Assembly (NCBI GenBank): GCA_964549705.1
Contig: CAZJUX010000002.1
Coordinates: forward strand, 3,007-67,006
DNA length: 64,000 nucleotides
DNA from: an uncultured Candidatus Saccharibacteria bacterium
GTDB lineage: Bacteria; Patescibacteriota; Saccharimonadia; Saccharimonadales; Saccharimonadaceae
Direction: 5' to 3'
Part shown: positions 485 through 5,326 of the stretch, piece after piece
How the letters are laid out: each line of letters begins with the position of its first letter
Numbering within the stretch: position 1 is the first letter of the stretch
Program-made: the position numbers and the translations under genes
The notes under the pieces: model-generated
The model's database searches: none
What the model was told of the DNA's origin: nothing
The model's input: the letters and a program-made list of their open reading frames with translations, nothing else

Positions 485-1345
485 CTACCAGCCCAACGCG
501 CCCACTATGAGAACCATGGTTATGACAAAGCCGGTGGTTAAATTCAGCCAGATGAATCGACGCCAGCCCTTGTTTGTGGAGGCGGATGTTTTGTCGGTGA
601 CATTTAGATAAGGGATGACATTTAATGCGTACGACAAACTAACTAGACCTACCAGAGCCACCAAAGCCCCTTGCAAAGCGAGAGTGGCACTAGCGACAAT
701 ATAGAGAACAAATACTAAGCGAGTTGTTGTTCTAGCTCCAAAGATAGTTGCGATCGAGGCTAACTTACCTTCTCGATCAGGAATAACATCCTGAACTGCG
801 CCAAAAGCGTGACTGGCTGCCCCCCACACAAAGAAGGCAATGACATATGGCCAATATGTTGCTTCGAAGCCCGTTATGCTCATCGCGTAAACCATCGGGC
901 CGACGAAGTGTAAACTACTGGTAGCCGAGTCTAGTATGGGCACTTCCTTGAACCGCAGTCCCTTTATGGAATATGCGATAACTAAAAACACTACTAACGC
1001 CAAGATGGTGTTTGTGAGTAGAGAGCCACTCATGAGCAGGTAGACGAGGAACGGGAGGTTTAGGGTGATTGACGAAATGATAATTAGCGGATGCATGGAT
1101 TTTTGTTCTTTGGCTCCTTCGATGCCACCTTTGCGCGGATTGAGCATGTCCGAATCGTAGTCGAACACATCGTTAATGCCGTACATTAGTAGGTTGTAGG
1201 GGATCAAAAAGTAAAACACGCCCGACCAGAACACAGGATCAAGCGAACCGCCAGTTACTAGGTATGCGGCCCCGAAAGGGAAGGCTGTGTTCAGCCAAGA
1301 AATGGGCCGTGATATAAGGGCAAGACTTTTTAGTTTGCTAAGCAT
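485..1345 (-). CDS. crtEb: UbiA-family prenyltransferase, lycopene elongase/hydratase (CrtEb type)
   Basis: Asp-rich motifs YGINDVFDYDSD and VQDVIPDREG, multiple TM helices, position after the paired cyclase genes. Confidence 0.85.
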   Translation of the reverse strand: MLSKLKSLALISRPISWLNTAFPFGAAYLVTGGSLDPVFWSGVFYFLIPYNLLMYGINDVFDYDSDMLNPRKGGIEGAKEQKSMHPLIIISSITLNLPFLVYLLMSGSLLTNTILALVVFLVIAYSIKGLRFKEVPILDSATSSLHFVGPMVYAMSITGFEATYWPYVIAFFVWGAASHAFGAVQDVIPDREGKLASIATIFGARTTTRLVFVLYIVASATLALQGALVALVGLVSLSYALNVIPYLNVTDKTSASTNKGWRRFIWLNLTTGFVITMVLIVGALGW

Positions 1346-1631
1346 TTTTTCCTCCTATTTTATCCCATATATTTGGGATGATAACGACTGCTAAAATTGC
1401 ATACATGAAATCTTCGATTGGTGCCAGTCCGATCACCAAGCCGGAAATCTTGCCTGTATCATATGCAACGATACCAGCGGTGATGATTAGTGAGTCAAAT
1501 ATGGCCGTAGACACAACTAATATTGCTAGTAACAGTATCATTGTTCTGTTCCAGGATAGGCTTTTAAGTGATTTAAGCACCAACAGGCAGACAGCCATAA
1601 AAAAAAGATTGAGTATTAAATACGTCGCCAT
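1338..1631 (-). CDS. Heterodimeric carotenoid cyclase subunit (CrtYf/Yh-like)
   Basis: 97 aa, 3 TM, FDSLII and PIEDFMY lycopene-cyclase-domain motifs; overlaps both neighbours. Confidence 0.8.
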   Translation of the reverse strand: MATYLILNLFFMAVCLLVLKSLKSLSWNRTMILLLAILVVSTAIFDSLIITAGIVAYDTGKISGLVIGLAPIEDFMYAILAVVIIPNIWDKIGGKNA

Positions 1632-1930
1632 TTAGTTTCTCCAAATCGATACAATACAAGCGTAAAGTAGCACAGGAAGCTTATAAATAACAACTCTTCT
1701 ATTGGGAATTCAGGACCGAGGTATAGGCCACTCATGTAGTGGGATTGGCCACTAAAGAATATACCCAGAGCAATACCAAACACGTCCCAGACAATGAATA
1801 CCGCCACGCCGATTAATATGGTAATAAGAGCTCTCTTTTTGTCGTAAAAGAGAGCTAGTTTGTAACGCCAATCAAGAGTCGCTATGCCAGCCATGCTAAA
1901 AAGAATCGTCACGAGATAGAGGTATTGCAC
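1616..1930 (-). CDS. Heterodimeric carotenoid cyclase subunit (CrtYe/Yg-like)
   Basis: 104 aa, LDWRYKLALF, VWDVFGI and PIEELLF motifs; GTG start overlaps the crtI stop. Confidence 0.8.
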   Translation of the reverse strand: MQYLYLVTILFSMAGIATLDWRYKLALFYDKKRALITILIGVAVFIVWDVFGIALGIFFSGQSHYMSGLYLGPEFPIEELLFISFLCYFTLVLYRFGETKWRRI

Positions 1931-3444: not shown

Positions 3445-4259
3445 CTTAAAACAAACCTCCTGATCAATAGTATAAGCTTGAGGGTATCAGATATCCTAAT
3501 CCGAGCGGTTTTAATTGTACTAACGTCGGCTCTCTTTAGCTTTGCGAACAAGGCTTGATAATAGTCGTAGCTCAGCATCGATGCTACTCTTGCGCCTTTT
3601 GGTAGTTTTTTGAGAGCTTCAAGAGCGGTTGAAAAATCTTTTTCGATGTCGGATTCGATAAGTTGTTTCTGCTTGTTGTTGAATGAATTGAACTCTATGT
3701 TTGGAAAATAAACCCTCTTTAGTCTAGCGTTGTCATCACGCATATCTCGGAGGAAATTGATTTTTTGATAGGCCGCACCGAGCGCTCGTGCTCCATCTGA
3801 TAGTTCTTGGTAGCGTGACATGTCTCCAGTTACAAATACCTTTAGGCACATTAAGCCGATTACTTCTGCCGAACCGTAGATATACTGTCGATACAGAGTG
3901 TCGTCATAGGTATGCGGAGCTAAGTCGGCACGCATACTGGCGAAGAAGGGGCGTGTTAACTCTGATCCGAAACTATACTTTCTTGCGCAGATAGCAAAAG
4001 CTTGTACGATAGGGTTTGAGCTGTACCCACCAGCCATGGATCTCTCAGTGTCATGCTCAAGTTCGTCAAGTAGCACGCTAGCGTCGTCGCCCATGTAAGT
4101 ATCTACAATCTCATCGGCAACCCGAACTAAACCGTAGATAGCATAAATGTGCGGGCGAATATTTCGGCTAAAAAGACGACTACTCATACCAAATGATGTC
4201 GAGTACCGAAGAGTCAAGTGCCTACTTATCTCATAGGCAATTTTATTATATAGCTCCAC
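3441..4259 (-). CDS. crtB: Phytoene synthase
   Basis: IYAIYGLVRVADEIVD, YIYGSAEVIGLM, AYQKINFLRDMRDD. Confidence 0.93.
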   Translation of the reverse strand: MELYNKIAYEISRHLTLRYSTSFGMSSRLFSRNIRPHIYAIYGLVRVADEIVDTYMGDDASVLLDELEHDTERSMAGGYSSNPIVQAFAICARKYSFGSELTRPFFASMRADLAPHTYDDTLYRQYIYGSAEVIGLMCLKVFVTGDMSRYQELSDGARALGAAYQKINFLRDMRDDNARLKRVYFPNIEFNSFNNKQKQLIESDIEKDFSTALEALKKLPKGARVASMLSYDYYQALFAKLKRADVSTIKTARIRISDTLKLILLIRRFVLR

Positions 4260-5326
4260 TACGACGACCGGTTTGTTACCCAGCTAATTATTTGTTCAAG
4301 TAACTGGCTCTTGTCTTGCTCTAAATTAAGCTTTGCTAGTGATTGTCGCGATAGATCGGTGTAGTGGGTAATACGCTGCTCGGTTGCGTAACGTGCGCCC
4401 GAGGACTCGAGCAAAAGCTTGGCGGCTTCAATTTCACTATGCGAAGCATCGGCGTTGCCGAAAGCTTTCATGAAAACTGCTCTATCAGCTGTCGAGAATA
4501 ATTTGAAGGCTTTTTCTACCATAAAAGTTCGCTTGCCTTCAGCGATATCGCTAATATTTGATTTGCCAGTTTTCTTTTCATCACCAAAAACGCCTAAAAT
4601 ATCATCTGTGAATTGAAACGCAACACCTAGAGCGATAGCAAAGTCACGAAGATCCGATAGTTGATCGGACTCAGCGCCTGCCAAGCTTGCGCCCGTAAGA
4701 AGTGGAGGCACAAATGAGTAACTGGCTGTCTTGTAGATGGCAACTTTCAGCGCATCGCCCTGCTTATATGGCATAAAACTGAGTTCAAAATCGAGCAACT
4801 GTCCTGCTGCTACCTCAAAGATTCCGTTACTCAGCAGACGTTGCGCTGTAGCGATAGATTTGCGTGGTAGCTCGCTGGAAGCAATGAGTTGGTGTGCCCC
4901 CGAAAGCATGAGATCGCCAGCAATAATTGCTGCGCTGTTAGCAAAATGTATTAAATCTTCGGCGGATGAGGCACGACTGCAGTAAGTTTGTCTGTATTGG
5001 CCGGCGATATTTGCCACGCCGTATCGGATATAGTCACGATCGATTACGTCGTCATGAATCAATAGTGAAAAGTGTAATAATTCCTGCGCTGCTGCAATTG
5101 GCATGATTTGCTTCGGGCTCGACCCACCAAATGCCTCATACGACAGCAGGGTCATTTTAGGTCTGAGACGTTTTCCGCCAGACTGAATAAGTGAATAAAG
5201 AGCTTTCCATAATCTTTCATAAGTAGGGTCTATTGTCGCTGCGTCTTTTATAGATCGCTCAAAGAAACTATTAATTACTGAGTCTATTGTTGATAGCGAA
5301 CCCTGCTGTGCGGAATGAGGGTGCAT
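4259..5326 (-). CDS. crtE: Polyprenyl (GGPP) diphosphate synthase
   Basis: GGKRLRP, first Asp-rich LIHDDVID, second QFTDDILG, KTASYSF. Confidence 0.88.
   Translation of the reverse strand: MHPHSAQQGSLSTIDSVINSFFERSIKDAATIDPTYERLWKALYSLIQSGGKRLRPKMTLLSYEAFGGSSPKQIMPIAAAQELLHFSLLIHDDVIDRDYIRYGVANIAGQYRQTYCSRASSAEDLIHFANSAAIIAGDLMLSGAHQLIASSELPRKSIATAQRLLSNGIFEVAAGQLLDFELSFMPYKQGDALKVAIYKTASYSFVPPLLTGASLAGAESDQLSDLRDFAIALGVAFQFTDDILGVFGDEKKTGKSNISDIAEGKRTFMVEKAFKLFSTADRAVFMKAFGNADASHSEIEAAKLLLESSGARYATEQRITHYTDLSRQSLAKLNLEQDKSQLLEQIISWVTNRSS

Follow-up and report, generated by a model that had tools for sequence, protein, structure and literature searches.

The closest described systems to the gene cluster examined here are the actinobacterial operons for cyclic C50 carotenoids. 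In Corynebacterium glutamicum, the decaprenoxanthin operon is organized as crtE-cg0722-crtB-crtI-crtYe-crtYf-crtEb (PMC3598387) and its regulator is CrtR (PMC5401885). A cluster with the order crtE-crtB-crtI-crtYe-crtYf-crtEb is found at positions 485-5326 of a 64,000-nucleotide stretch of DNA (the window; contig CAZJUX010000002.1, positions 3,007 to 67,006) from assembly GCA_964549705.1 of an uncultured Candidatus Saccharibacteria bacterium. It is quite likely, judging from the sequence comparisons described below, that these six genes and a small gene that follows them (orf81) form a functional unit that has long resided in the chromosome of this environmental Saccharibacterium and that this unit makes a cyclic C50 carotenoid. 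Bacteria of the candidate phyla radiation, to which this organism belongs, are generally considered to synthesize hardly any lipids or isoprenoids themselves.

Carotenoid genes in this group of organisms have been mentioned before. A metagenome-assembled genome (MAG) of Saccharimonas was said to have "acquired" crtB, crtE, crtYf, and "ubiA (ubiquinone)" (PMC11484240). Going by the passage of that report in which the genes are named, this gene set is almost certainly the same kind of operon with the elongase misread. In Patescibacteria from Lake Baikal, an acyclic bacterioruberin-type set consisting of lyeJ, crtD, and cruF was reported (PMC9948471). In the relevant passages of these two papers the genes are mentioned in passing, and precursor supply, class-wide distribution, and phylogeny are not addressed there. 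Where rhodopsins of Saccharibacteria were described, crt genes are mentioned for the actinobacterial partners alone. The acyclic bacterioruberin type (lyeJ-crtD-cruF) was considered for the present operon and rejected, as two cyclase subunits are present and none of the seven operon ORFs is of the cruF or crtD type (for CruF, the search did not extend to the whole genome). On the CrtID model NF058655, the one CrtI-family gene reaches 508 bits, below the cut-off of 640. A possible LyeJ/CrtD-type set was seen in one relative (L121 (G054:C8) and L091), in which a gene for a distant UbiA protein (31% identity) is divergent to a CrtI-like gene.

Gene identities were assigned from the listing of open reading frames (ORFs), followed by Pfam and NCBIfam profile scans of the window proteins. 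The genes of the operon are:

4259..5326, minus strand: crtE, 355 aa, geranylgeranyl diphosphate (GGPP) synthase-type trans-prenyl diphosphate synthase (PF00348, 162 bits)
3441..4259, minus strand: crtB, 272 aa, phytoene synthase (PF00494, 124 bits)
1930..3444, minus strand: crtI, 504 aa, phytoene desaturase (TIGR02734, 501 bits, cut-off 238)
1616..1930, minus strand: crtYe-like small cyclase subunit, 104 aa (TIGR03462, 57.2 bits, cut-off 39.4)
1338..1631, minus strand: crtYf-like small cyclase subunit, 97 aa (TIGR03462, 51.2 bits, cut-off 39.4; PF18916, 36 bits)
485..1345, minus strand: crtEb, 286 aa, UbiA-family lycopene elongase (NF009608, 386 bits, cut-off 217)

The ORFs, the family scans, and the overlaps at the junctions confirm the six-gene set that the original prediction had placed at these positions. 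The overlaps along the crtE-crtB-crtI-crtYe-crtYf-crtEb junctions are 1, 4, 1, 16, and 8 nucleotides (nt). The start codon of crtB is GTG and has one base in common with the stop codon of crtE, and the junction between crtB and crtI is an ATGA overlap. The genes for lycopene supply (crtE, crtB, and crtI) share the predicted transcription unit, in the order E-B-I-Ye-Yf-Eb, and the unit includes two adjacent genes encoding lycopene cyclase domains of ~100 aa, as is the case in cyclic C50 carotenoid clusters. All seven reading frames, from crtE to crtEb plus orf81, are intact.

The motifs DDVID and DDILGVFGD are readable in the CrtE translation, and the top NCBIfam matches of this protein, all of which are below the curated cut-offs, include actinobacterial-type GGPP and farnesyl diphosphate synthases. 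For CrtEb, CrtI, and CrtB, 71-75 homologues were compared. At least 95% of the 71 CrtB homologues keep the motifs YSTSF, ADExVD, GSAEV, and NFLRD, the CrtI motifs are kept in at least 95% of the homologues, and the CrtEb motifs MYGINDVxDYxSD, NPRKGG, and AFGAVQDxxxDR are kept in at least 95% of 75 homologues, with both of the Asp-rich motifs present. CrtI is 79% identical to the protein from another Saccharibacterial locus, L011. Additionally, a PIEE motif is readable in the CrtYe-like subunit and a PIED motif in the CrtYf-like subunit. The NF009608 model matched by CrtEb bears only the name "prenyltransferase", and a comparison of CrtEb with PDB sequences gave no match. The nearest homologues of CrtEb occupy the last (crtEb) place in crtYe-crtYf-crtEb operons, and CrtEb is the sole UbiA-family protein detected in the genome.

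When compared with C. glutamicum (gene order from the papers cited above), the Saccharibacterial operon encodes the six enzyme families in an identical order within one predicted transcription unit, including the lycopene elongase and the heterodimeric small-subunit cyclase. The two operons differ in that the Saccharibacterial operon does not contain the MmpL-type gene cg0722, and that an FtsX and ATP-binding cassette (ABC) pair, instead of a MarR-type CrtR, is divergent from it. There is no crtX in the 64-kb window, and a conserved 81-aa gene follows crtEb. Furthermore, no marker of the methylerythritol phosphate (MEP) pathway was detected in the Saccharibacterial genome. Such a lack of a C5 supply is a property of the organism and not of its carotenoid enzymes, and the operon still belongs to the cyclic C50 family. 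The absence of both idi and crtX from the operon, which had been noted originally, was confirmed.

The operons of Micrococcales (Microbacteriaceae and Micrococcaceae; e.g. Plantibacter L020) have the same gene order, which supports the earlier assignment of the Saccharibacterial genes to the actinobacterial type of cyclic C50 carotenoid operon. The Micrococcales CrtEb proteins are 50-55% identical, and the CrtI proteins 39-44% identical, to those encoded here. In Micrococcales, an idi type 1 gene is located near the operon (directly and divergently upstream of crtE in L020), whereas none was detected in the Saccharibacterial genome, and the GC content of the Micrococcales operons is 67-71% compared with 45% for the operon in the window. 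C50-type clusters with a homologous elongase domain (42-47% identity) are also found in other orders of the Saccharimonadia as CrtEb::GT2 clusters. The elongase of the present operon differs from these in that it is a stand-alone protein of 286 aa, and no glycosyltransferase is encoded in the operon.

The steps of the pathway can be assigned by homology to the C. glutamicum and Micrococcales pathways. CrtE would form GGPP, CrtB would convert two molecules of GGPP to phytoene, and CrtI would convert phytoene to lycopene by desaturation. CrtEb would then transfer a C5 unit from dimethylallyl diphosphate (DMAPP) to each end of lycopene, which would result in acyclic intermediates of first C45 and then C50, and the end rings would be closed by a CrtYe/CrtYf heterodimer to give a cyclic C50 carotenoid whose ring type is not callable from sequence. 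Isopentenyl diphosphate (IPP) and DMAPP, or longer prenyl diphosphates, would have to be acquired externally, with the host cell as the most plausible source. The most likely role of the pigment is that of an antioxidant, photoprotectant, or rigidifier in the membrane, or a mix of these.

A retinal-related role of the pigment is unlikely here because searches of the genome for rhodopsin and heliorhodopsin found none. The type-1 rhodopsin family (PF01036) gave no match in 15 genomes, a result that leaves absence unproven as the control genomes were silent too, and the search for heliorhodopsin was negative for this genome and for its genus. Heliorhodopsin genes are present in some carotenoid carriers of other genera (G341 (C1:620158-628194), G502, G043, G055, and G054), and in G341 the heliorhodopsin gene lies 6.5 kb from crtEb.

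The copy in the window is one of many. Of 61 close relatives, 11 encode a CrtEb homologue, and in an even sample of 401 Saccharimonadia genomes there are 90 carriers (22%), which represent 46 of the 186 genera. The stand-alone type of CrtEb is found in approximately 30 of these 90 carriers. In most of the remaining carriers, many of which belong to other orders, the elongase homologue is located within frames of 670-715 aa (G417, G359, G343, and ~50 others), and Pfam scans of database representatives of this length (P0131 and P0128) determined that they are fusions of CrtEb with a GT2 glycosyltransferase. Other representatives have CrtEb fused with a cyclase subunit (P0121) or with a CrtI-like desaturase (P0254). 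More than 100 clusters (at 90% identity) of metagenome proteins with 62-75% identity to CrtEb are found among the matches listed, some of them on contigs of 0.6-1.1 Mb. Among named genomes, the closest CrtEb proteins are from other Saccharibacteria (56-72%) and the next closest are from Micrococcales (50-55%). The six-gene order is common to the Saccharibacterial and Micrococcales loci examined.

The operon was also compared with the Saccharibacterial copies L011, L018, L118, and L116, for which the proportion of nonsynonymous differences (pN) is 0.13-0.44 and the proportion of synonymous differences (pS) is 0.60-0.93 (saturated). Because pS is saturated while pN is low, the Saccharibacterial copies have undergone a long divergence under purifying selection. 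The genes that flank the operon vary among the carriers, and therefore the operon has moved as a unit within the class as well. Taken from these comparisons, the carotenoid operon is best described as an old, common, and selectively maintained trait of the class. The pigment could help in the sorting or cultivation of environmental Saccharibacteria, as a marker that can be seen. In the case of this window, the results are mostly a confirmation of the operon and a resolution of the assembly doubt at 8.7 kb that is discussed below.

With regard to the supply of precursors, the original prediction proposed a search of the genome for genes of the MEP and mevalonate (MVA) pathways and idi, and none of the markers tested was detected. 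IspH was not found in this genome or in 14 relatives, four of which are single-contig genomes, while control genomes gave matches. HMG-CoA reductase was not found in this genome, and among the 15 genomes only one distant relative, G054, has a fragment of it. No match above the cut-off was obtained in the genome for idi type 2. For idi type 1, three Nudix proteins found by motif score below the cut-off (a fourth Nudix ORF, at 44063-44482 of the window, was not scanned), and a tblastn search of the genome with the Plantibacter idi1 found nothing (best E = 4). The Plantibacter idi1 itself, which is located divergently upstream of crtE, scores 251 bits. An idi type 1 gene is present in the fetched flank of 48 actinobacterial operon loci and of no Saccharibacterial locus. 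Regular-expression scans of the genome, which are weak tests, found no GHMP-kinase motif and no candidate of the isopentenyl phosphate kinase or amino-acid-kinase type.

Undecaprenyl diphosphate synthase (UppS) is encoded in all 20 genomes tested, including this one. In this genome CrtE is the only trans-prenyl synthase, as determined by a phmmer search against all ORFs of the genome and by a single match to PF00348. Seven non-carriers of the same genus (G003, G006, G011, G029, G012, G028, and G030; four of them single-contig) have UppS and no trans-prenyl diphosphate synthase, and in these cells the allylic primer for undecaprenyl diphosphate would come from outside. IspH and HMG-CoA reductase are absent in G003, G006, G011, and G029, the four of the seven non-carriers that were tested. 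The idea that a polyprenyl synthase simply travels with the operon was rejected, as a polyprenyl synthase gene adjoins uppS in six genomes (G015, G024, G026, G031, G004, and G009). Outside the Gracilibacteria, only C10-C20 isoprenoid steps are reported, and this includes the Saccharimonadia (PMC9166423).

The likeliest reading is that IPP and DMAPP, or longer prenyl diphosphates, are supplied from outside, because no C5 marker genes were found, CrtE is the sole trans-prenyl synthase, and UppS is present. The original suggestion of a pathway fed with host prenyl diphosphates stands to this extent, as the lack of detected MEP, MVA, and idi markers makes an outside supply plausible, while the host as its source is a step that we infer. 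If the cells lack C5 synthesis, a selectively maintained pathway to a pigment of ten isoprene units in approximately one fifth of the sampled Saccharimonadia species would require that IPP and DMAPP, or prenyl diphosphates, flow in steadily, and the question of what epibionts take from their hosts becomes concrete and testable.

A more specific scheme is possible and is put forward tentatively, in which the cyclic C50 pigment would span the membrane and be built entirely from C5 diphosphates of the host, these would cross the epibiont-host contact by an undescribed transfer route, and CrtE would also prime UppS. Without an isomerase, both IPP and DMAPP would be needed, at ten C5 units per pigment molecule. 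Since CrtE is the only trans-prenyl synthase, the pigment operon would supply the allylic primer of UppS and would thereby be tied to cell-wall synthesis.

Several points weigh against a cyclic C50 pigment that is made from imported precursors. The absence of the GHMP and isopentenyl phosphate kinases comes from the regular-expression scans only. The genome is estimated to be 94.9% complete and a missing C5 gene could lie in a gap; however, complete single-contig relatives likewise lack IspH, HMG-CoA reductase, and idi type 2. To our knowledge, no uptake route for charged prenyl diphosphates has been described. Lastly, the small cyclase family includes C40 lycopene beta-cyclases, and the C50 assignment rests on CrtEb and the gene order.

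The last of these points leads to the alternative that the product is a C40 cyclic carotene, in which case the two subunits would form a lycopene beta-cyclase of the CrtYc/Yd type and the UbiA protein would have another job. Both TIGR03462 and PF18916 span C40 and C50 cyclases, and in the part of PMC11484240 that names the genes the equivalent "ubiA" was taken for a ubiquinone gene. The properties of the UbiA protein make this alternative improbable. Its score of 386 bits on NF009608 is well above the cut-off, whereas it scores 20-28 bits, far below the cut-off, on models of the 4-hydroxybenzoate octaprenyltransferase type. Its nearest homologues in both Saccharibacteria and Micrococcales are encoded at the end of crtYe-crtYf-crtEb operons, and its gene overlaps crtYf by 8 nt and keeps this position in the loci examined. 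Additionally, neither a type-1 rhodopsin (control silent) nor a heliorhodopsin that could use a beta-carotene product was found in the genome.

It is slightly less probable again that the operon is an inactive relic in a cell that cannot make IPP or DMAPP. The failure to find C5 pathway genes would fit such a state, but the seven frames are intact, pN is far below pS over a long divergence, and the motifs are kept. Moreover, UppS is found in 20 of 20 genomes and IspH in none of the 15 screened, and therefore C5 units must enter these cells anyway. A working operon for a cyclic C50 carotenoid is favored over both a C40 pathway and a relic.

The origin of the operon was examined using gene trees of CrtI and CrtEb, as the original prediction had proposed. 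These are quick trees, the CrtEb tree is rooted on unnamed distant representatives, and the amino-acid composition differs between the groups. Outgroups were sought in a class-wide sample around a Brevibacterium genome, which gave 11 matches, all ~50% identical and without kinship labels, and by cluster look-ups, in which only one Agromyces and one Dehalococcoidia protein were named. In the CrtEb tree, all sampled Saccharibacterial sequences except L009 (G055) form one clade (Shimodaira-Hasegawa approximate likelihood-ratio test (SH-aLRT) support 95). This clade is inside a larger group (SH-aLRT 99) that includes the sampled Micrococcales, with a three-way split left. In the CrtI tree, 12 Saccharibacterial sequences are on one side of a branch with a support of 100. 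Because Micrococcales as a single clade were not rejected by the approximately unbiased (AU) test (p-AU 0.69), the Saccharibacterial clade is placed beside the Micrococcales and is not demonstrably nested inside them, and the trees do not fix the direction of transfer.

These results bear on whether the operon was recently transferred from the present actinobacterial host. The closest homologues outside the Saccharibacteria are from Micrococcales, with 50-55% identity and an identical gene order, and Ca. Mycosynbacter amalyticus, the sole cultured relative named among the matches of the housekeeping protein MurC, grows on an actinobacterium. Nevertheless, a recent transfer is very improbable. 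The composition of the operon is fully ameliorated, no sampled actinobacterium exceeds 55% identity, and the synonymous sites are saturated. The sampled Saccharibacteria form one clade for CrtEb (apart from L009 of G055) and one for CrtI, a single Micrococcales clade is not rejected, and the identity of this CrtEb to other Saccharibacterial copies (62-75%) is comparable to or above that of MurC (55-79%). With one clade beside the Micrococcales and saturated synonymous sites, the operon is an old maintained trait and not a recent gift from the host. The earlier description of the operon as host-lineage-derived, if understood as a recent gift, does not agree with the genome-like composition, the saturated pS, the presence in 22% of the sampled genomes, or the position of the clade.

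The operon is native to the Saccharibacterial genome. The assembly consists of 768,906 bp in 33 contigs, with 94.85% completeness and 0.15% contamination. Relatives with names are, for its MurC, Ca. Saccharibacteria and Ca. Mycosynbacter amalyticus and, for CrtEb, Saccharimonadaceae, Saccharimonas, and Microsaccharimonas. The small genome (0.77 Mb), the MurC relatives, and the closest CrtEb matches, which are Saccharibacteria MAGs, bear out the original identification of the organism as a Saccharibacterium. The tetranucleotide composition of the operon correlates with that of the genome (r = 0.884, compared with 0.901 +/- 0.051 for windows of the genome), the GC content is 0.449 compared with 0.436 +/- 0.015 for the genome, and the tetranucleotide comparison with the Plantibacter operon gave r = -0.30. 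An identical CrtEb protein is encoded in further assemblies, including a contig of 278,210 bp (ERZ15185023 NODE_17) from a sister strain that is 99.83% identical to positions 1-8702 of the window and has the operon in the middle of the contig.

The original prediction also pointed out a junction at ~8.7 kb and cautioned that the assignment of both sides to the same genome needed checking. The junction exists, as two truncated genes meet at 8695-8702. The features at this site are:

8695..8702: CAAGTGGC, the single remaining copy of an 8-bp repeat, at the site where 12,306 bp of the sister strain are deleted
8168..8704, minus strand: remnant of a P-type ATPase, of which the last 178 aa (C-terminus) are left (PF00689, 149 bits)
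8720..8942, plus strand: remnant of a Crp/Fnr regulator, helix-turn-helix domain only (PF13545 and PF00325)

Positions 1-8702 and 8695-20000 of the window align (99.8%) to NODE_17 at two sites that are 12,306 bp apart. NODE_17 has CAAGTGGC at both ends of the segment that is missing from the window, which retains one copy. In the sister strain both genes are whole; the P-type ATPase has 834 aa and the Crp/Fnr regulator has 213 aa with a cyclic nucleotide-binding domain. The missing N-terminal part of the P-type ATPase was not found elsewhere in the assembly. The deleted ~12 kb in the sister strain (loci L094 and L100) encodes several proteins without a family match as well as a sortase, an Exo_endo_phos protein, VIT1, and a pilin-like (N_methyl) protein. 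Because the flanks align 12,306 bp apart on one contig with CAAGTGGC at both ends, the junction at 8.7 kb is the result of a microhomology deletion at the level of the strain and not a binning seam, and both flanks belong to one chromosome.

The junction of the window is also carried, at 99.99% identity, by L098 and L101, two assemblies of run SRR8925755, which may come from the sample set of the MAG itself so that the two are possibly not fully independent. In run SRR8925788, two contigs end at the junction. This is expected if both alleles co-occur, and the deleted and undeleted alleles seem to co-occur in that run. That the left 8.7 kb is actinobacterial DNA misjoined or misbinned to a Saccharibacterial contig, as the abutting truncated genes and the two SRR8925788 contigs that stop at this point could suggest, is practically excluded by the sister contig with both sides 12.3 kb apart and the 8-bp repeat at the bounds, by the two further assemblies that share the junction, by a composition that equals that of the genome and anticorrelates with the Plantibacter operon, and by nearest homologues that are Saccharibacterial. 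The assignment of the operon and the remainder of the window to the same genome is thereby upheld.

The remaining features adjoin the operon:

236..481, minus strand: orf81, 81 aa, with its ATG 3 nt past the crtEb stop codon
5335..5363, minus strand: promoter-like TTGTTA-17 nt-TATAAT from a consensus scan, ending 8 nt before the crtE ATG
5376..7248, plus strand: FtsX-type permease and ABC ATPase pair, divergent from the operon (PF02687 and PF00005)

The gene orf81 also adjoins the operon in L011, L012, and G014, where it is 67-75% identical (four genomes in total with the present one), and it is probably a seventh, co-transcribed and translationally coupled gene. In the comparison with L011, pN is 0.13 and pS is 0.90. 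No Pfam match was obtained for orf81 at E <= 10. The AlphaFold model of the protein (predicted local distance difference test (pLDDT) score of 73) has a predicted alpha/beta fold, and no match below E = 0.1 was found among PDB folds. The protein may have an accessory or regulatory function in carotenoid synthesis.

The location of the promoter-like site suggests that the crtE transcript has a leaderless or near-leaderless start. In the upstream region overall, promoter-like sites are no commoner than in shuffled sequence, and it is the position alone that argues for this site. The FtsX/ABC pair also neighbors the operon of L012 and G014 (65-73% identity) and is not beside the operon in L011, L015-L018, and L039. 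It was considered as part of the pathway and rejected, as only three genomes show the linkage. Downstream of the operon and to the left of the window (C2:573-2156; L094 12211-13788), a major facilitator superfamily transporter gene is split into ORFs of ~171 and 335 aa in both strains. Farther to the right, positions 17777-17851 of the window match the AdoCbl-II riboswitch with 37.3 bits, compared with the Rfam gathering threshold of 36.5.

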